NCBI RefSeq assembly: GCF_024818015.1
Contig: NZ_CP093908.1
Coordinates: forward strand, 150,001 to 182,000
Reading direction: 5' to 3'
DNA: 32,000 nucleotides
Source of the DNA: Candidatus Saccharimonadota bacterium
Lineage (GTDB): Bacteria > Bacteroidota > Bacteroidia > Flavobacteriales > Blattabacteriaceae
The position numbers were made by a program, and so were the translations under genes. The first letter of the stretch is position 1; each line of letters begins with the position of its first letter. Shown in pieces: positions 1 through 23,672 of the stretch. The notes below the pieces were generated by a model that saw nothing but the letters and a program-made list of their open reading frames with translations, was not told where the DNA came from and did not search any database.

Positions 1-599
1 TTCTATTATAAATATTTTAGATCCTATCTTATTATAAAAATAAGCAAATTCTAAACCAATAGCTCCAGATCCTATAATTAATATATTTTTAGGTATATAT
101 TTTAATAACATTGCTTCACGATAACCAATGAGGGTTGATAATTTTTTTACTGTCTTCAAAATTTGATATTTAGCTCCCGTGGCAATAATTATATTTAAAG
201 CATTATATGTTTTTTTCTTTCCATATTTATCTATAACAGAAACTATTTTGTTTTTACAAATTTTAGCTTCACCATATAAGATTTTTATCTTATTTTTTTT
301 TATTAAATATAAAACTCCTTTATTAAGACTATCTGATATATAACGACTACGTAAAATAATTTTTTTAAAATCTAATTTTAGATTATTAGTAATAATTCCA
401 TATTTTGAAGCTTTTTTAAAACTATTAAAAATATTTGCACTTTTTAATAATGATTTGGTAGGTATACATCCCCAATTAAGACATACACCTCCAAGATTTT
501 CTTTTTCTACAATAGCAGTTTGTAATCCTAATTGTGCTGCACGTATTGCAGCTACATAACCTCCAGGACCACTTCCAATTATAATTAAGTCAAAATACA
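1..599 (-). CDS. lpdA: Dihydrolipoyl dehydrogenase (E3 component), N-terminal ~200 codons; the rest lies left of the window
   Basis: Hand translation of the minus strand from the ATG (rc of 597-599) gives MYFDLIIIGSGPGGYVAAIRAAQLGLQTAIVEKENLGGVCLNWGCIPTKSLLKSAN... It has the FAD-binding GxGxxG motif, the redox-active CxxxxC disulfide, and a second GSGAIGLE NAD-binding motif near position 1. The frame stays open to the window edge. It is absent from the ORF track only because it is truncated. Confidence 0.9.
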
Positions 600-3890: not shown

Positions 3891-4997
3891 ATGTTATTAG
3901 AAATAACAATTCCATCTCCTGGAGAATCAATAACAGAAGTTGAAATATCATCTTGGTTAGTTAAAGATGGGGATTTTGTAAAAAAAAATCAAGTAATTGC
4001 AGAAATAGATTCAGATAAGGCAACTTTAGAAATACGTGCAGAAGAAAGTGGAATTTTAATTATAAAAGCTAAAAAAGGAGAAATTTTAAAAGTCGGAGAA
4101 AGATTATGTTTAATAGATACTTCTAAAAAAGAACCATCAGAAAAAAATTCTACATCTCCATCAGCAAAAAAAATATTAAGTCAATATAAAATATATAATA
4201 AAATAGCCCCAAAAAAACATGATGCTATTAAAGCAATTCCGTCTATGGGAACTAAAAGTTTAATTAATAGATCTTTTAACGTAAAAAGATTATCTAAACT
4301 TAGACGTAAATTATCAGAAAGACTTGTTTCAGTAAAAAATGAAACAGCTATGCTGACTACTTTTAATGAAGTAGATATGAGTCAGATTTTGTTTTTAAAA
4401 ACAAAATATAAAGATGTTTTTAAAGAAAAACATGGAGTTAATTTAGGATTTATGCCTTTTTTTGTAAAATCTTGTATAAAAGCGTTAAAAGAATATCCTA
4501 ATATTCATTCTATGATAGATAGGGAAAATCAAATTAATTTTAATTATTATGATGTAAGTATTGCCGTTTCTGGACCTAAAGGATTAATGGTGCCAGTTAT
4601 TAGAAATGCAGATACTCTTTCTTTTAGAGGTATAGAAAAAACTATAAAAGATTTATCTAATCGTATTAAAAATTCAACCATATCTATAGATGATATGACT
4701 GGAGGTACTTTTACAATAACAAATGGAGGAATTTTTGGTTCTATGTTATCTACTCCTATAATAAATCCCCCCCAAAGTGCTATATTAGGTATGCATAATA
4801 TAGTAGAAAGACCGGCAGTCATTTTAGGAAAAATCGAAATTAGACCAATTATGTATTTAGCATTATCTTATGATCATAGAATCATAGATGGTAAAGAAGC
4901 AGTAGGTTTTTTATTTTCAATAAAGAAATCAATAGAAAATCCTATTAAGACTTTAATAGGTTCAGAAAACGAATTAAATAATTATTTTGAATTATAA
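3891..4997 (+). CDS. sucB: Dihydrolipoamide succinyltransferase, E2 component of 2-oxoglutarate dehydrogenase
   Basis: N-terminal lipoyl domain ([11 protein letters not shown]), a very short putative E3-binding segment (SPSAKKIL...), and a catalytic domain with [13 protein letters not shown]. Confidence 0.93.
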
Positions 4998-5435
4998 TTT
5001 ATCCAATTTTTCTTTTTCAAAGTATTTATTTTTTATTGATTGACGTTTATCATAATTTTTTTTACTTTTAGCTAAAAAAAAAATTAATTTGATATATCCT
5101 CTCTCATTTAGAAAAATCTGAGTAGGAATTATATTGAATTTTAAATCATTTATTTTATTATAAATCAAATTAATTTCTTTTCTTTTAAGAAGAAGTTTTT
5201 TCACCCTTTTAGGATGAAAATTCATTCCAAGTAAATAATTTGATACATACATATCAAAAACATAAATATTATTTTTTATTAGTTTACAATAACTATTGTT
5301 TAAAGAAACGTTATTATTTTTTATTGATTTTACCTCACTTCCTAATAATTCTAGACCAGCTATAAATTTATATTTATTTATTAATTCATAGTCAAAATAT
5401 GCTCTTCTATTATTAATATTTAATTTCTTTACCAA
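4992..5435 (-). CDS. smpB: SsrA (tmRNA)-binding protein SmpB
   Basis: 147 aa. [31 protein letters not shown] matches the SmpB N-terminal signature. The start codon is TTG (rc of 5433-5435). Confidence 0.88.
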
Positions 5436-5747: not shown

Positions 5748-5821
5748 AGAAAATTTTTTTTTATAAAAAATTTATATTATATTAATAATATATATTATAT
5801 ATTTAAATTAAATTAAATGAT

Positions 5822-5923
5822 ATGATAGATAAGATAGATAAGCATAAGCATATGATAGATAAGCATATGATAGATAAGCATATGATAGATAAGCATATGA
5901 TAGATAAGCATAATACTAATACT
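5822..5923 (+). repeat. Tandem repeat of 15-bp unit ATGATAGATAAGCAT, followed by a 6-bp duplication
   Basis: Four perfect copies lie at 5852-5911, preceded by a degenerate copy at 5822-5851. A 6-bp duplication, aatactaatact, follows at 5912-5923. All were read directly. Each unit carries an in-frame ATG. Confidence 0.95.
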
Positions 5924-6472
5924 CTAGAAATTAAGGGATTGGTAAAAACTATATTTGAGGTTAAACATTTCAAAAATGTATTTCAAAAAAGAGAAATCCT
6001 TCTATTAACAGAAGAGCAATATCCACAAAAAATAATAATTGAATTTATTCAAGACAAAGTCAAAATATTAGATTTTGTGGTAGAAGGAGATAGAATAAAA
6101 GTTTTTATAAATTTAAAAGGGAGAAAATGGATTTCCTCTGATGGAACAGAAAAATATTTTAATTCTATTCAAGGTTGGAAAATTGAAAAACTTGAAAGGG
6201 AATCGGAATCTGAAGGTGAATCTGAATCGGAATCTGAAGGTGAATCTGAATCTGAAGGTGAATCGGAAGGGGAATCCGAATCTGAAGGTGAATCGGAAGG
6301 GGAATCGGAATCGGAATCGGAAGGGGAATCGGAATCTGAATCTGAATCTGAAGGTGAATCGGAAGGGGAATCTGAATCTGAATCGGAATCTGAATCTGAA
6401 TCTGAATTTGAATTTGAAGAAAAACCCCTTCCCCCAAAAAAAGGGGAAGGTCTAGAAGATTTTCCTTTTTAA
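5822..6472 (+). CDS. DUF3127-type (putative OB-fold-like) protein with an N-terminal MIDKH repeat, a ~70-aa E/S/G acidic low-complexity region and a C-terminal SSB-like EDFPF tip
   Basis: 216-aa ORF. The core [13 protein letters not shown]...[22 protein letters not shown]...INLKGRKW...[14 protein letters not shown] matches my recollection of the Bacteroidota DUF3127 family. There is no in-frame Met downstream of the repeat, so translation must start at one of the repeat ATGs (5822, 5852, 5867, 5882 or 5897). Confidence 0.6.
6200..6418 (+). repeat. Imperfect hexanucleotide/dodecanucleotide coding repeat (GAATCN GAAKSN)n encoding (ESEG/ESES)n
   Basis: About 36 consecutive GAA-NNN hexamers were read directly. 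The tract is visibly more GC-rich than its surroundings. The unit variants differ mostly at synonymous third positions. Confidence 0.95.
6427..6450. terminator. GC-rich hairpin, candidate bidirectional terminator between convergent genes
   Basis: The stem is CCTTCCCC (6427-6434) pairing with GGGGAAGG (6443-6450), 8 bp. The loop is C plus A7. The hairpin lies inside the last codons of the DUF3127-type ORF. On the minus strand it is followed by GGTTTTCTTC. It sits between that ORF and the convergent groEL. The function is inferred only. Confidence 0.3.
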
Positions 6473-6487
6473 TGCTTTAAAAGGGGG

Positions 6488-8439
<1,952 letters not shown>

Positions 8440-8452
<13 letters not shown>

Positions 8453-8655
8453 ATTCTTTTAATATTGTTTGAGATAATAATTAATATTATCAATATTAAT
8501 GATAATATAAAGGTAAGTTTTTCTAAAAACAATTGTATCTTTCTATTTCCCTTTACCAACTTAGACGTTTGTATAAACAGAAAAAATATTAAGAATAAAC
8601 ATATTATTAGAATTGATAATTCTATAATAGAATAAATGATAATTATTTTAATCAT
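8440..8655 (-). CDS. Small two-TM membrane protein, possible preprotein translocase subunit SecG
   Basis: From ATG 8655, giving [37 protein letters not shown]...[18 protein letters not shown]. The layout is two hydrophobic helices flanking a Q..K..G / FL.K.T loop, as in SecG. The ATG overlaps the miaB stop as ATGA, and the 3' end overlaps the groES start by 13 nt. The position upstream of groES fits my recollection of Bacteroidota synteny. Composition bias could also produce such an ORF. Confidence 0.45.
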
Positions 8656-10019
8656 AATAATATATTTCCAACTAAAGTAGCCGATGTACAATTAGTAATT
8701 TTTACTTTTATAAAATATCCTATTTTAGAATTTTTTTTAGGAAATATGACTATATCATTTCCAGAATTTCTTCCATAAAAAAAATTAATATTCTTTGTTG
8801 AAATTCCCTCGATTAAAATATCTTGAAGACTATCAATAGATTTTATCTTTCTATAATAGGAATGTGTTTTTTGTAAATTTATGATTTCAGTTAATCGACG
8901 TTTTTTTGTGGATAATGAGACATTGTCAATTAATTTTTTATAAGCATAAGTCCCTATTCTATGTGAATATAGAAACATATATGAAAAGTTATATTTTACA
9001 TAATTCATTAAATGAAGGGTTTCATTATGATTATTTTGATTTTCATTACAAAATCCAGTGATTATGTCACAAGATAGAGAACAATTAGGTATAATATTTC
9101 TAATTTTCTTTATAAGAAAAATGTAATCTACATATGTATGTTTTCTATTCATTAATGATAATATTCTATTACTTCCTGATTGAACTGGTAAATGAATATG
9201 TTTACATATATTAATATATTTTTTAATTACGTTTAAAACATTATCTGACATGTCATTAGGATTAGAAGTCCAAAAACGTATTCTCATAAGAGGTACAGAA
9301 ATAGCAACTAATTCTAGTAATTTAGAAAAATTTATGATTTCTTCATTTTTTATTTCTTTTCTTTTCAAATTTTTTTTTAATCCTCCTCCATACCAGAAAT
9401 ATGAATCTACATTTTGACCTAAAAGTATTATTTCTTTATATCCTTTTTTAAATAAAAATTTACATTCTTTTATAATACTATATGGATCACGACTTTTTTC
9501 ACGACCTCTTGTAAAAGGAACTACACAAAAAGTACACATATTATCACATCCCCGTATTATAGTAACAAATGCAGTTATTTTTTTTTCTTCCCTTTTAGGA
9601 ATAATATCAGCATAAGTTTCAGTTTTAGAAAATGAAGTACTTATATATTCTCCTTTTTTTTTAAAAAAATTATTTATTAAATTTGGAATTTCTCTATAAG
9701 AGTCAGGCCCTACTACTAAATGTTCTTTTATCTTTTTAAATTTTGAAGCCATACACCCTAATATACCAATTAAAATATTATTTTTTTTTATAATAAATTT
9801 GATTTGATTTATTCGTAAAAGAATTTTCTTCTCAGATTTTTCTCGAATCGAACATGTATTAATTAATATTATATTAGCTTCTTTTAAATTTTCAGTTTTA
9901 ATGAATCCTTTATTATCTAAAATAGAAGATACAATTTCATTATCAGAGATATTCATTTGACAACCATAATTTTCTATATAAAATTTTTTCTTTATCATAT
10001 GCACATAAATTAATTTCAT
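8652..10019 (-). CDS. miaB: tRNA-i6A37 methylthiotransferase MiaB (radical SAM)
   Basis: Has the N-terminal UPF0004 motif YGCQMN, the radical-SAM motif [11 protein letters not shown], and a C-terminal TRAM-like region. An alternative start at 9998 ([13 protein letters not shown]) is equally plausible. Confidence 0.88.
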
Positions 10020-19484: not shown

Positions 19485-20747
19485 TTATATATTGTTTTTT
19501 TTAAAAAAAAAACCGATAGATTTTAAATCAATCCAAAAATTAGGATAAGATTTAGATACTACGTTATAATTTAATATTGATATAGGATATCTAATCCCTA
19601 ATGTAGAAAATGACATTGCCATCCTATGATCATCATAAGTATAAATATAAATTTCCTTTTTTTGAGTTTCATTAAACTTAACTAATTCTATACTAGAATT
19701 AGTTATAATACTTTTTACCCCTAATTTAGATAATTCATTTTTTAATGCATTTAATCTATCTGTTTCTTTAATTTTTAGAGTTTCTAGTCCTCTTAAAATA
19801 CATTTAATTCTTAATCCAGTACAAGTTACGACTATAGTTTGTGCTATATCTGGAGTTGAATTCAAATCAATATCTATTGAATTCAAATCAATATCTATTG
19901 AATTCAAATCAATATCCATTATTTTTTTTAAATTAATTTCATTTTTCTGAAAAAAAGTTTTTACATTAAAAAAATCTTTATATATATTTGAGATTATACT
20001 ATCACCTTGAATATTTTTTTTATTAAAAAATTTTAAATTTAAATCAGCTTTTTTAGAAAGAGCTACTAAAGAATAATAATATGATGCTGAACTCCAATCA
20101 GATTCTATTATTCTTTTAATTTTTTTTTTAAATTTTTTATTTTGAATATAAATCATATTATGATTCCACAATACATTTATGCCCAGTTTTTTTAAAACGT
20201 TTAATGTCATATTAAGATAAGAGATAGAAGTAATTTTATTTGATAAATATATTTTTAATCCATTTTCAAATTTTGATGCTATTAACATAAGAGCACTTAT
20301 ATATTGACTACTTATAGTTGCATCTATATTAATTCCCCCCCCTAATAATTTATTACCCATTATTCTCAATGGAGGATATCCATTTTTTTTTTCATAAAAA
20401 ATCTTTCCTCCTAATTTTTTTAGAGTTTCTACTAAAATAGAAATAGGTCTTTCTTGCATTCTATATGATCCAGTTAATATAACTTCTCTATTTTCTTTTA
20501 TAGAAAAAAAGGCGGTTAAAAATCGCATAGCGGTTCCAGAATGTTTAATATTAATTAACTTTTTTTTAGAAAATAAAGCCTTTTTTAAGATTAAAGTATC
20601 GTCAGAATTTGAAATATTTTCTAACTCAATTATATCAGGATATAATGCTTTTAATATCAAAAATCTATTAGATTCACTTTTAGATCCAGTAATCTTAACA
20701 TTACCATTTATATAAAAATTATTTTTAGATATTTGAATATAATACAT
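19485..20747 (-). CDS. aroA: 3-phosphoshikimate 1-carboxyvinyltransferase (EPSP synthase)
   Basis: GSKSESNR(F)LILKAL, RMQERPI, TPDIAQT and KIKETDRLNAL motifs. It contains an internal 3x IDIDLNS repeat. Confidence 0.9.
   Translation of the reverse strand: MYYIQISKNNFYINGNVKITGSKSESNRFLILKALYPDIIELENISNSDDTLILKKALFSKKKLINIKHSGTAMRFLTAFFSIKENREVILTGSYRMQERPISILVETLKKLGGKIFYEKKNGYPPLRIMGNKLLGGGINIDATISSQYISALMLIASKFENGLKIYLSNKITSISYLNMTLNVLKKLGINVLWNHNMIYIQNKKFKKKIKRIIESDWSSASYYYSLVALSKKADLNLKFFNKKNIQGDSIISNIYKDFFNVKTFFQKNEINLKKIMDIDLNSIDIDLNSIDIDLNSTPDIAQTIVVTCTGLRIKCILRGLETLKIKETDRLNALKNELSKLGVKSIITNSSIELVKFNETQKKEIYIYTYDDHRMAMSFSTLGIRYPISILNYNVVSKSYPNFWIDLKSIGFFFKKNNI
19856..19918. repeat. 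21-bp tandem repeat x3 inside aroA
   Basis: The unit is ttgaattcaaatcaatatcta. Copies lie at 19856-19876, 19877-19897 and 19898-19918. There is one mismatch, at 19917. Read directly. The repeat is in frame and encodes IDIDLNS x3. Confidence 0.95.
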
Positions 20748-20751
20748 ATTT

Positions 20752-21066
20752 TTAATTTTTGCTTTGCTCTATCTCTGATTTTAAAATCTTTCCTTTTTTT
20801 ACCCCAGATAAAAGATATTTTTTATAATAAATTCCCTCTTTTAAAAGAAACGATTTTACAGTACATGTAGGTTGTGCTCCTTTAATTAACCAATTAACAG
20901 CTTTATCAACATTAATTGATATAGTATATGGATTAGTGTTAGGATTATAAAAACCAATTTTTTCTATAAATTTTCCATTTCTAGGAGAACGAGAGTTAGA
21001 AACTACAATAGTATAAAAAGCTTTTTTTTTTCTCCCTTTTCTTTGGAGCCGAATTTTTATTGACAT
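20752..21066 (-). CDS. rpsP: 30S ribosomal protein S16
   Basis: MSIKIRLQRKGRKKKAFYTIVVSNSRSPRNGKFIEKIGFYNP is the S16 signature. The start is taken at the internal ATG 21066, because the longer ORF runs through tRNA-Gln. Confidence 0.9.
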   Translation of the reverse strand: MSIKIRLQRKGRKKKAFYTIVVSNSRSPRNGKFIEKIGFYNPNTNPYTISINVDKAVNWLIKGAQPTCTVKSFLLKEGIYYKKYLLSGVKKGKILKSEIEQSKN

Positions 21067-21087
21067 ATTTTTATAAAAATTTATTTG

Positions 21088-21158
21088 CAGACCCGTAGGG
21101 ATTTGAACCCCAACTAACAGAACCAAAATCTGCTGTGCTACCATTACACAACGAGTCT
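21088..21158 (-). tRNA. tRNA-Gln, anticodon UUG
   Basis: The reverse complement is AGACTCG-TT-GTGT...GCAC-A-GCAGA-TTTTGGT-TCTGT-...-GGGGTTCAAATCCCT...CGGGTCT-G, 71 nt. Confidence 0.85.
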
Positions 21159-22386: not shown

Positions 22387-22665
22387 ATGGCACACCCTAA
22401 AAGGAAACAATCTAAATCTAGAAAGAAGAAAAGAAGAACTTCTTACACTATTTCTAGTCCAAAATTAGGAATAGATATAAAAACTAAACAGTTACATCTA
22501 TATCATAGAGCACATTGGTATGAAAAAAATTTATTTTATAAAGGCAAATTATTATTTATTAAAAATAAATACATTTTTTTTTTAAGTAAATCATTAATTG
22601 GAAATTATCAATATTTTAATTTATTTAAATATTTATTAATAAATAAATATGATTTTTCTCTATAG
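22387..22665 (+). CDS. rpmF: 50S ribosomal protein L32 with ~30-aa non-conserved C-terminal extension
   Basis: The MAHPKRKQSKSRKKKRRTSY N-terminus and LHLYHRAHWYEKNLFYKGK are L32-like. The ORF then runs on through AT-rich sequence to a stop inside the 41-bp repeat. Confidence 0.8.
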   Translation: MAHPKRKQSKSRKKKRRTSYTISSPKLGIDIKTKQLHLYHRAHWYEKNLFYKGKLLFIKNKYIFFLSKSLIGNYQYFNLFKYLLINKYDFSL

Positions 22666-22727
22666 TAATTTTTGTATAGAGAAAATAATATGATTTTTCT
22701 CTATAGTAATTTTTGTATAGAGAAAAT
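22646..22727. repeat. 41-bp tandem duplication, each copy carrying an 11-bp-stem hairpin
   Basis: The unit is aatatgatttttctctatagtaatttttgtatagagaaaat. Copies lie at 22646-22686 and 22687-22727, and they read as identical. A partial third copy, aatat, starts at 22728. Confidence 0.95.
22654..22726. terminator. Two tandem hairpins, candidate bidirectional terminators
   Basis: The stem is TTTTCTCTATA / TATAGAGAAAA with a 10-nt loop. The arms lie at 22654-22664/22675-22685 and 22695-22705/22716-22726. They sit between convergent rpmF and pdhB. T-runs flank both sides. The function is inferred. Confidence 0.4.
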
Positions 22728-23672
22728 AATATCCTTTTTCTGAGGATACCAATTTTTTATTAAATTATTAGCATAAGGTGCCGGGGTATCTTGTACTGTT
22801 ATTCTTTTAATTGGAGCATCTAAATAATCAAAAGCTTCTTGTTGAATAACATAAGCTATTTCAGAAGAAATAGCAGCTAATGGCCAAGATTCTTCTAATA
22901 AAAGTAATCTATTAGTTTTTTTTATAGAATTAATAATAGTTTTATAATCTAACGGACGTATAGTACGTAAATCTATAATTTCTACACTTAGATTTGTTTT
23001 TTCAAGTTCTAAAGCAACATCTAATGCTATTTTTATTATTTTACCAAAAGTAACGATTGTTACATCATTGCCTTTTTTTTTTACATTAGCTAACCCTAAT
23101 GGCAGAGTATATTCTTCAATAGGAATAATCATTTTCTCTCCATACATTTGTTCAGATTCCATAAAAAGGACTACATCATTATCACGTATTGATGATTTTA
23201 AAAGACCTTTGGCATCATAAGGATTAGAAGGAATTACTACTTTTAATCCTGGACAATTAGCATACCAACTTTCAAAAGATTGAGAATGTGTAGAACCTAA
23301 TTGGCCGGCAAAACCTGTTGGTCCTCTAAAAACTATCGGAAGATTCCATTGTCCTCCACTCATTTGCCTTATTTTAGCAGCATTATTAATTATTTGATCC
23401 ATAGCTACTAATGAAAAATTAAAAGTCATAAATTCAATAATAGGACGACACCCATTCATAGCTGATCCAATCCCTATCCCAGAAAATCCTAATTCAGATA
23501 TTGGAGTATCAATGATTCTTTTGTAACCAAATTCTTTTAGCATCCCTTTAGAAGCTTTATATGCTCCATTATATTCTGCTACTTCTTCTCCCATTAAATA
23601 GATGGTTTCATCTCTTCTCATTTCTTCACTCATAGCTGCAACTATAACTTCTCTAAAACTCATTTCTTTCAT
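22701..23672 (-). CDS. pdhB: Pyruvate (2-oxo acid) dehydrogenase E1 component, beta subunit
   Basis: 323 aa. FREVIVAAMSEEMRRDETIYLMGEEVAEYNGAYKASKGML..., IIDTPISELGFSGIGIGSAMNG, and a transketolase-like pyrimidine-binding plus C-terminal domain. Confidence 0.9.
   Translation of the reverse strand: MKEMSFREVIVAAMSEEMRRDETIYLMGEEVAEYNGAYKASKGMLKEFGYKRIIDTPISELGFSGIGIGSAMNGCRPIIEFMTFNFSLVAMDQIINNAAKIRQMSGGQWNLPIVFRGPTGFAGQLGSTHSQSFESWYANCPGLKVVIPSNPYDAKGLLKSSIRDNDVVLFMESEQMYGEKMIIPIEEYTLPLGLANVKKKGNDVTIVTFGKIIKIALDVALELEKTNLSVEIIDLRTIRPLDYKTIINSIKKTNRLLLLEESWPLAAISSEIAYVIQQEAFDYLDAPIKRITVQDTPAPYANNLIKNWYPQKKDIIFSIQKLL

Follow-up and report, generated by a model that had tools for sequence, protein, structure and literature searches.

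The window, a 32-kb stretch of DNA, belongs to a genome of Candidatus Karelsulcia (Sulcia) muelleri, of the type that measures ~190 kb. On its forward strand lies an open reading frame (5822-6472) that opens with an ATG and encodes 216 amino acids plus a stop codon; its 3' end and that of groEL are convergent (Table 1). The exact 216-aa protein has no record in the gene-position index. By searching Pfam, we found that residues 36-122 match DUF3127 (PF11325) with 84.2 bits (E 7.6e-24), which passes the gathering cutoff of 27 and covers positions 1-85 of the 85-position model. Also, phrog_4932 (“single strand DNA binding protein”) was matched over profile positions 1-92 of 117, either with the full protein (E 1.2e-28) or with the core alone (E 4.3e-29). 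An initial annotation made without database searches had described a DUF3127-type protein with a folded core, an acidic linker and an FPF end, and all these parts were recovered by Pfam, composition analysis and AlphaFold. Indeed, the translated frame ends with ...LEDFPF, and the stretch of pure Glu/Ser/Gly, first estimated at about 70 residues, counts 69 (127-195; 35 E, 25 S and 9 G). As for two other genes of the window described in the same annotation, the START-like frame at 714-1091 matches PF19569, while the “SecG-like” one (ORF 8440-8691) has no Pfam match at 1e-5.

Table 1. Features of the DUF3127 locus (positions in the window)
Feature	Position	Strand	Basis
DUF3127 / SSB-like gene, maximal ORF	5822..6472	+	ORF list, Pfam and phrog_4932 matches
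15-nt tandem repeat encoding (MIDKH)n, 6.2 copies	5820..5912	+	Tandem Repeats Finder
Predicted OB-fold core, residues 33-124	5918..6193	+	AlphaFold, Foldseek, dN/dS
Pfam DUF3127 match	5927-6187	+	Pfam
Hyper-acidic linker, predicted disordered, residues 125-200	6194..6421	+	Composition, pLDDT ~52
Pure E/S/G run, residues 127-195	6200-6406	+	Composition
GAATCT hexanucleotide repeat, 36.5 copies	6200-6418	+	Tandem Repeats Finder
Conserved C-terminal segment	6422..6469	+	Tip statistics, 51-sequence alignment
SSB-type tip LEDFPF	6452-6469	+	Family and canonical SSB tip statistics
Tandem repeat, 19-nt unit x3 (or 10-nt x6)	6487..6546		Tandem Repeats Finder

The 32-kb window has five strong tandem-repeat arrays, and three of them are found at this locus, within 730 bp. 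The first one makes up the beginning of the protein, whose first 30 residues are (MIDKH)n, and supplies five in-frame ATGs (5822, 5852, 5867, 5882 and 5897), so that the start codon in use is ambiguous and some of the repeat could belong to a 5' leader. The NCBI gene model of a sister strain begins at the last ATG, equivalent to 5897, and in other Sulcia clades the protein starts at MEI.G, which aligns with LEIKG of the window protein. The second array encodes the linker, with a net charge of -38 (residues 124-200). The third fills the space that separates the DUF3127 gene from groEL and overlaps the stop codon of the latter. Its unit repeats the sequence of the groEL 3' end (reverse complement ...ATGATGTAA), and it is single-copy or absent in a sister strain (alignment with L007). 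In the full-length AlphaFold model, residues 33-124 have a pLDDT above 90, and residues 1-30 and 125-216 have a pLDDT of ~52 and no secondary structure, which is consistent with disorder of both ends.

Repeat copy number varies among strains. We found four length alleles (146, 159, 203 and 216 aa), which all keep the reading frame and the tip and have near-identical cores, the 159-aa allele differing by one substitution. One of the alleles comes from a complete 190,661-bp NCBI genome, and for a near-identical strain, the Logan assembly of short reads shows a much lower number of repeat copies. Expanded acidic linkers followed by the tip are also present in Shikimatogenerans and in a Sulcia with a 159-kb genome. 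It was first proposed that this tiny genome had let the gene expand. This wording implies too much design: the variation is that of tandem repeats of the replication-slippage type.

Modelled separately (pLDDT 92.4), the core shows the order beta1-3, helix, beta4-5 of an OB-fold topology (strands E2-14, E25-33 and E40-46, helix H47-55, strands E61-74 and E80-93), and its pI is 9.4. By comparing this model to the PDB with Foldseek, we found that places 1 to 48 were all occupied by bacterial SSBs (E 3e-6 to 1.3e-4, TM 0.5-0.65), with bacterial SSBs representing 49 of the best 50 matches. These include the SSBs of Pseudomonas, Klebsiella, Coxiella, S. aureus and E. coli and B. subtilis SsbA; the ssDNA complexes 6jdg, 1eyg and 6bhx are among the PDB matches. 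In BFVD, phage DUF3127 proteins rank first and phage SSBs next. The resemblance to SSB suspected in the initial annotation thus extends to the predicted fold: the core is modelled as a five-stranded OB-fold whose helix comes after strand 3 and before strand 4, and the structurally nearest proteins are bacterial SSBs.

At the sequence level, the relationship is distant. The curated threshold of PF00436 was not reached, 9 of 48 DUF3127 members having E ≤1 (best 1e-3), so that DUF3127 is not a member of PF00436 by Pfam's rule. Likewise, TIGR00621 matched the protein with an E of only 0.54, below its curated threshold, and searching PDB sequences with the protein and the family profile gave marginal SSB matches (E ~0.4-1). 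In this last search, the SSB matches stood among spurious low-complexity ones caused by the ESEG tail. Aligning the DUF3127 and SSB alignments with hhalign returned a collinear but weak local match (P 3e-4, probability 40%), for which the SSB side had little depth (Neff 1.9), as the search probe was consensus-like. Both hmmsearch and hhalign place the invariant Trp in the GR[KE]W motif at E. coli W88. In the N-terminal, low-confidence half of the hhalign alignment, the Y of QYPQ falls at W40 and the EF of IEF at E53-W54, and the region of E. coli SSB F60 is deleted in DUF3127. DUF3127 is therefore a separate family, distantly related to PF00436. The IF3 C-terminal domain (PF00707) was rejected as an assignment for the window protein, with 17.6 bits against a cutoff of 34.8 and a predicted OB topology. 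Finally, the core is under purifying selection: between Sulcia, Blattabacterium and Walczuchella, its dN/dS is 0.11-0.41 and it has no indels.

The C-terminal end could be compared directly with that of SSBs. P215 and F216 are invariant in an alignment of 51 sequences, and an [LIFMV]PF end was found in 103/120 close DUF3127 homologues and 115/148 distant representatives, mostly as [DE][DE][LIFMV]PF, so that ~80% of the family is tipped. The terminal [DE][DE][LF]PF, for which family-wide conservation had been suggested as a check, is thus widespread in the family. The same tip ends 119/120 canonical SSBs, and the DUF3127 consensus, DDLPF, is that of Bacteroidota SSBs. As in SSBs, the acidic tip follows a linker predicted to be disordered (pLDDT ~52). 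The tip is missing in two Shikimatogenerans isolates, and partner docking may therefore be dispensable in some lineages.

The DUF3127 family comprises ~7,000 clusters at 50% identity, and cellular genomes annotate it only as “DUF3127 domain-containing protein”. A literature search, PF11325 included, returned no experimental or biochemical paper on any DUF3127 protein. We found 116 phage records with a DUF3127 gene, all named after Bacteroidota genera except three generic “Bacteriophage” records. The RefSeq versions of the phage records label this gene SSB, which is a computational annotation. The flavobacterial Nonlabens phage P12024L has DUF3127 directly behind the genes for an Erf-like annealing protein and a YqaJ exonuclease, in that order, and two other genes separate it from primase; DUF3127 also occurs in one prophage-like block. 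On cellular chromosomes, the gene follows FeS_assembly_P at a fixed position in symbionts and Flavin_Reduct in free-living Flavobacteriaceae. None of the cellular neighbours (FeS_assembly_P, groEL, Flavin_Reduct and aat) is a replication gene, and the cellular genomic context says nothing on DUF3127 function. Natural two-domain proteins with a single tip exist, as do tail-less variants of 88-92 aa (P0098-P0104, Shikimatogenerans RDOM).

The gene is kept in highly reduced genomes: Sulcia (156-285 kb), Shikimatogenerans (173-193 kb), Walczuchella (289-309 kb), Bostrichicola (337 kb) and Blattabacterium. As the initial annotation would have it, it is intact in all sister strains seen, in Sulcia genomes from 156 kb to 285 kb. 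Within the 32-kb window there is no canonical ssb, and ssb has been reported as lost from Sulcia (PMC6294904; PMC7952229). A wider comparison found no ssb in any Bacteroidota symbiont genome <320 kb, a canonical ssb still present in larger ones and few DNA repair genes in the small genomes; DUF3127 is unmentioned in that study (bioRxiv 10.1101/2025.10.31.685726). Host supply of SSB is possible because host mitochondrial SSBP is modestly up-regulated, 2.4-fold, in Sulcia bacteriocytes (PMC6294904). In Sulcia-GWSS, the orthologue SMGWSS_191 reaches a TPM of 11,350, that is rank 14 of all genes and ~4x the expression of gyrA, with sense and antisense reads in a ratio of 16 to 1 (PMC5592932 Table S2).

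Compared to canonical SSBs (PF00436; E. coli SSB, B. subtilis SsbA, Bacteroidota SSBs), the DUF3127 protein shares the predicted OB-fold with its helix between strands 3 and 4, the linker, the D-D-[LIF]-P-F tip and a conserved Trp in the R-K/E-W motif, which aligns with E. coli W88. However, its core is ~87 residues long instead of ~110, the loop that joins strands 2 and 3 is much shorter, its linker in Sulcia consists of Glu/Ser/Gly only (net charge -38) instead of being Gly/Gln/Pro-rich, and its sequence similarity stays under the Pfam threshold. The phage proteins (Nonlabens phage P12024L gp21, Flavobacterium phage Fpv5 gp31) belong to the same Pfam and PHROG family, are 45-57% identical to cellular members and have the predicted structures closest to the core in BFVD; their genes sit in recombination/replication modules, whereas the cellular copy has a fixed chromosomal position. 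Some DUF3127 proteins (P0295, P0363) resemble the two-OB SSBs of Deinococcus-Thermus, with two OB domains, one linker and one DD[LI]PF tip, and Thermus aquaticus SSB (PDB 2fxq) is among the Foldseek matches of the core. The Sulcia protein, in contrast, has a single OB domain, and the tandem forms of DUF3127 were seen only in metagenomic representatives. These forms give an indirect hint that DUF3127 may assemble several OB folds into one functional unit, as the SSB homotetramer does with four.

Two other groups of small OB proteins are relevant for comparison. T7 gp2.5 is an OB-fold ssDNA-binding dimer with an acidic C-terminal tail, the last residue of which is aromatic and essential; this tail binds proteins of the replisome and also vies with DNA for access to the cleft. 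By analogy, this tail could be a model for the hyper-acidic tail of Sulcia DUF3127, although gp2.5 has no detectable sequence relationship to DUF3127, differs in the elaboration of its OB-fold and is not among the top structural matches of the core in the PDB or BFVD. PriB and SsbB are small SSB-derived OB proteins of ~100-113 aa without a tip. The tail-less 88-92-aa DUF3127 variants are alike in size, whereas the Sulcia protein and ~80% of the family have a linker and a tip.

Fold, tip, PHROG match and phage context, all computational, support the SSB-like reading first proposed for this protein. We consider it probable that the DUF3127 gene encodes a compact and divergent protein of the SSB kind, most likely the symbiont's own SSB. 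Its basic OB-fold of 87-92 residues would bind ssDNA and would be joined by the disordered linker to an acidic-hydrophobic tip (LEDFPF in the window protein, DDLPF for most members), which would dock replication and repair partners in the manner of canonical SSBs. Candidate partners retained in these genomes may be DnaE, DnaG and MutS/MutL. The chi subunit, named as a possible partner in the initial annotation, belongs to proteobacteria and is improbable as a partner in Sulcia. Canonical ssb would have been lost in Sulcia and other Bacteroidota endosymbionts under ~340 kb, for which reason the paralogue-like DUF3127 protein would most likely be the cell's own SSB; the literature and the 32-kb window suggest that Sulcia has no other. 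Thus a replication gene listed as lost from these symbionts has probably merely gone unrecognised. The length and acidity of the linker, as well as the MIDKH stretch, would arise by in-frame slippage of tandem repeats, which would be tolerated because the affected regions are disordered. Unlike the typical Gly/Gln/Pro-rich linkers of SSBs, the -38 linker might lower DNA affinity. A bolder version strikes us as possible but somewhat doubtful. There, DUF3127 would be the sole essential replicative SSB in all small-genome Bacteroidota insect endosymbionts, the compact paralogue having displaced a canonical ssb that is universal elsewhere; the view that ssb was lost and that the host mitochondrial SSB compensates would be an annotation artefact; and the variable acidic linker would be, by analogy with the T7 gp2.5 tail, a tunable autoinhibitor mimicking ssDNA.

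We also considered that the protein could be an accessory SSB-like adaptor or competitor, whose tip recruits or titrates SSB partners while imported host mitochondrial SSB coats the ssDNA, possibly with a specialised role in repair or recombination inherited from free-living Flavobacteriia or phages. Canonical ssb is present in the larger symbionts and also in free-living Bacteroidota, so DUF3127 is not the ancestral primary SSB, and this accessory role would agree as well with the presence of the family in phages and in one prophage-like block and with the 2.4-fold induction of the host protein in Sulcia bacteriocytes. However, the gene is kept in genomes of 156-193 kb from which almost every classical partner of the SSB tip is gone, its very high expression fits a stoichiometric DNA-coating protein, and the import of host SSB into Sulcia that this role calls for is hypothetical. 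We thus regard an accessory role as unlikely.

Much the same can be said, more strongly, of an OB-fold with a non-DNA ligand, that is an RNA/translation or chaperone-like function for which the proximity of groEL/groES and smpB would be meaningful. Weak IF3_C matches were obtained for 25/48 members (best E 3.6e-5), one member (P0079) is labelled “translation initiation factor IF-3” by JGI, and the cellular neighbours are not replication genes. Yet all these IF3_C matches are under the Pfam cutoff and confined to the KVxINxxGRxW motif, the model has an OB topology and not the alpha/beta fold of IF3-C, and the best 50 Foldseek matches, dominated by SSBs, contain no IF3. Since DNA is the ligand suggested both by the DDLPF tip and by the location of the phage genes in recombination modules, we judge this function highly improbable. 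The least probable reading, to which we give almost no weight, is that of a decaying or neutral remnant with a non-functional product, in which the repeats are slippage debris or artefacts of short- or long-read assembly. The clustering of three arrays in 730 bp, the few DNA repair genes of these genomes and the lower copy number in the Logan assembly, which could itself be an assembly collapse, would fit such decay. Against it, all four alleles keep the frame, a near-identical core and the tip, purifying selection acts on the core, transcription of the orthologue is high, and in independent lineages the acidic linker has also expanded with the tip preserved behind it.

DNA replication is generally considered impossible without SSB. 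Its reported absence from these symbionts has been used as evidence for host-supplied core replication proteins (PMC6294904; bioRxiv 10.1101/2025.10.31.685726). Should DUF3127 prove to be an SSB, this inference would need revising and the lists of genes forming the minimal replisome of symbionts would change. The variation in repeat length provides a strain marker and a natural experiment on how much change an SSB linker tolerates. With its 87-residue OB core and canonical tip, the protein would rank among the smallest natural SSB designs, and a family of ~7,000 clusters would receive a testable function. In free-living Bacteroidota, DUF3127 would then compete, through the DDLPF tip that both carry, with the housekeeping SSB for the pockets of their partners, which would raise the question of its regulation.

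By examining the encoded protein, we found that the gene under study, which lies in a window of ~23% G+C, specifies four consecutive parts (listed below). The initial annotation had described three parts, and its account was accurate for the ORF, the DUF3127 match, the Glu/Ser/Gly-only stretch, the C-terminal end and the disordered linker. It overlooked the N-terminal repeat, and therefore also the uncertainty about the start codon. Residues 127-195 are composed solely of Glu, Ser and Gly, and the net charge of segment 124-200 is -38. In a full-length AlphaFold model, pLDDT exceeded 90 at residues 33-124, with both flanks at ~52 and devoid of secondary structure.

Features of the DUF3127 locus and of other parts of the window
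Feature	Position	Strand	Description
DUF3127 ORF	5822-6472	+	216 aa
(MIDKH)n, residues 1-30	5820-5912	+	15-nt tandem repeat
DUF3127 core, residues ~33-124		+	full-length Pfam match, 84.2 bits (cutoff 27), E 7.6e-24
Linker, residues 125-200	6200-6418	+	GAATCT repeat, 36.5 copies (tandem-repeat detection)
C-terminus			fourth part, final 16 residues after the linker
Third tandem array	6487-6546		19-nt unit x3, or 10-nt unit x6; immediately downstream of the DUF3127 gene
ORF between groES and miaB	8440-8691	-	83 aa
21-nt tandem repeat	19856-19920	-	3.1 copies
EPSP synthase gene (aroA)	19485-20747		contains the 21-nt repeat
rpsP (S16), maximal ORF	20752-21144	-	Pfam match begins only at residue 34
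tRNA-Gln	21087-21158		overlapped by the maximal rpsP ORF
41-nt tandem duplication	22641-22741		2.4 copies, between convergent rpmF and transketolase-like E1-beta gene

The closest proteins are the DUF3127 proteins of Candidatus Karelsulcia muelleri (Sulcia), with a core identity of 99-100%. The gene order sucA, sucB, smpB, FeS_assembly_P, DUF3127, groEL, groES, miaB, suf genes is shared with Sulcia-GWSS, tatC, which is missing in the window, being the sole exception. In Sulcia-GWSS, tatC lies between sucB and smpB (locus L004, 7276-9622); in the window there is none at 3891-5435, where a 6-nt overlap joins sucB and smpB. Since the near-identical strain L007 has the identical arrangement and the ~190-kb strain L029 has the overlap as well, tatC appears to have been lost in their common lineage. 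Cellular copies of the DUF3127 gene keep a fixed chromosomal position, directly after FeS_assembly_P in symbionts and flanked by Flavin_Reduct and aat in Flavobacteriaceae, and these neighbours are uninformative on function.

Elsewhere in the window, the ORF that the initial annotation had called SecG-like gave no Pfam match at an E-value of 1e-5 or better and overlaps groES on one side and miaB on the other. The 21-nt repeat adds an in-frame IDIDLNS x3 insertion to the middle of AroA, and the true rpsP start is probably an internal ATG. Because each 41-nt unit carries a hairpin (TCTCTATA, 10 nt, TATAGAGA), the duplicated segment looks like a bidirectional terminator present in tandem.

The initial annotation had proposed an SSB-like protein, and this reading is supported by a PHROGs label, the predicted fold, the PDB structural matches and the C-terminal tip. 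The protein matched phrog_4932 “single strand DNA binding protein” (E 1e-28). A model of the core built from 48 homologues (pLDDT 92.4) contains three strands, a helix and two long strands. When it was searched against PDB with Foldseek, ranks 1-48 were bacterial SSBs throughout (E 3e-6 to 1.3e-4, TM about 0.5-0.65), including those of Pseudomonas, Klebsiella, Coxiella, S. aureus, B. subtilis (SsbA), E. coli, Helicobacter, Mycobacterium and Salinibacter, with alignments spanning the whole DUF3127 domain. In BFVD, phage DUF3127 proteins came on top and annotated phage SSBs next. The models thus support an SSB-type fold for the core.

At the sequence level, the relation to canonical SSB is weak but consistent. 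The family profile (...GdkvkvsinlkGreWvnpqgevkyF...) aligns with residues 72-103 of Salmonella SSB, and hhalign gave a collinear match over 93 columns (P 3e-4) that places the invariant Trp of DUF3127 on W88 of E. coli SSB and, in a low-confidence part of the alignment, its conserved Tyr and Phe at the W40 and W54 positions; strands 2 and 3 are linked by a shorter loop than in canonical SSB. The PF00436 profile did not match DUF3127 proteins at Pfam's threshold, so that membership of PF00436 was rejected. Given this and the weak sequence match, we treat DUF3127 as a separate family, distantly related to PF00436 and predicted to act like SSB. These data support a previously unrecognised protein of the SSB kind, and no new kind of system; we infer both its oligomeric state and the partners of its tip. 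In the literature searched, we found no experimental characterisation of any DUF3127 protein. About half of the DUF3127 proteins also have sub-threshold IF3_C matches through a KVxINxxGRxW motif, so the label “translation initiation factor IF-3” on at least one JGI record (P0079) is likely a propagated mis-annotation.

The tip proved to be conserved among homologues. An [LIFMV]PF ending was present in 103 of the 120 close homologues (in 97 of these as [DE][DE][LIFMV]PF) and in 115 of 148 distant representatives, and proteins without it were mostly tail-less forms of 88 aa or clearly fragmentary or frameshifted. The same comparison gave 119/120 for canonical SSBs, those named as Bacteroidota (Bacteroidales, Flavobacteriales) ending in -DLPF. 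Thus, the tip is common to the whole DUF3127 family and matches that of the phylum's housekeeping SSB.

The family comprises 7,119 clusters at 50% identity (E 1e-3 or better). Four metagenomic representatives (P0241, P0295, P0363 and P0370) have two tandem DUF3127 domains. In P0295 and P0363, only one tip (DDEIPF or DDLPF) follows the two domains, an arrangement shared with the two-OB SSBs of Deinococcus-Thermus. P0293 (408 aa) appears to be joined to a membrane-protease-like protein encoded upstream, either as a fusion or through a merged gene call. By tblastn, we found the gene in 116 phage records, whose hosts by name are Bacteroidota genera (Flavobacterium, Polaribacter, Cellulophaga, Nonlabens and others) bar three generically named records; their RefSeq versions label it SSB. 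In Nonlabens phage P12024L, it follows genes for an Erf-like annealing protein and a YqaJ exonuclease and precedes two other genes and a primase. This position is the usual SSB slot in phage recombination modules. One Flavobacterium copy sits in a prophage-like block (sp. JP2137, CP191647.1; locus L003, 8001-8378), a run of ~25 small ORFs, all on the same strand, in which Pfam finds little other than HTH_17, Gad2 and ASCH. As this block resembles a prophage or mobile element, some free-living genomes may hold a phage-borne copy in addition to the chromosomal one.

The DUF3127 locus holds, within 730 bp, three of the window's five strong tandem arrays. Among strains whose cores are identical or nearly so, four alleles occur (146, 159, 203 and 216 aa; the core of the 159-aa allele differs by one residue), one of them in the complete 190,661-bp genome CP093907.1. 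Both the N-terminal and the linker array differ among these alleles, in repeat unit as well as in copy number, and every allele stays in frame and retains the tip. One of the assemblies compared is from short reads, and its repeats may be collapsed. The DUF3127 gene and groEL converge, and the third array fills the space between their 3' ends and reaches into the groEL stop codon, with each of its units copying the groEL 3' end/stop region (reverse complement ...ATGATGTAA, Met-Met-stop); it varies between strains, L007 having one copy. Acidic low-complexity linkers expanded independently in Shikimatogenerans isolates and in the Sulcia with a 159-kb genome. In Shikimatogenerans (L013, L014, L015 and L025), convergent D/E/N-rich expansions reach 214 aa, and one is poly-Lys. 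Isolate MSCA lost the DDLPF tip, and in RDOM the 92-aa OB domain alone remains; no tip sequence was found in any downstream frame of these tip-less genes. In our reading, linker expansion results from slippage, which a disordered segment can tolerate, and is no evidence for a new function. So acidic a linker could possibly affect the predicted DNA affinity.

Loss of ssb has been reported for Sulcia (Mao et al., PMC6294904) and likewise for Sulcia-MSEV (Waneka et al. 2020, PMC7952229), and a 2025 preprint (10.1101/2025.10.31.685726), which does not mention DUF3127, reports it absent from all Bacteroidota symbiont genomes <320 kb. Searching for PF00436, we found no canonical ssb within the 32-kb window; its absence from Sulcia is stated here on these three papers and the window. 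By genome or contig size, intact DUF3127 genes were present in Sulcia (156, 159, 191, 207-218, 236, 245 and 270-285 kb), Candidatus Shikimatogenerans bostrichidophilus (173-193 kb), Walczuchella (289 and 309 kb), Bostrichicola (337 kb) and Blattabacterium (560-640 kb). Across symbiont lineages, the 87-codon core has no indels and a dN/dS of 0.11-0.41. In the published Sulcia-GWSS RNA-seq table (PMC5592932), the orthologue SMGWSS_191, listed as “hypothetical”, ranks 14 among all genes (TPM 11,350; 84,187 sense vs 5,217 antisense reads), at ~4x gyrA. For the co-symbiont Baumannia, the same paper names ssb as one of the genes with the highest expression. The most economical reading is that these symbionts retained a compact SSB-like DUF3127 protein when they lost canonical ssb, and an SSB-like DUF3127 would bear concretely on accounts of replication in tiny Bacteroidota symbionts.
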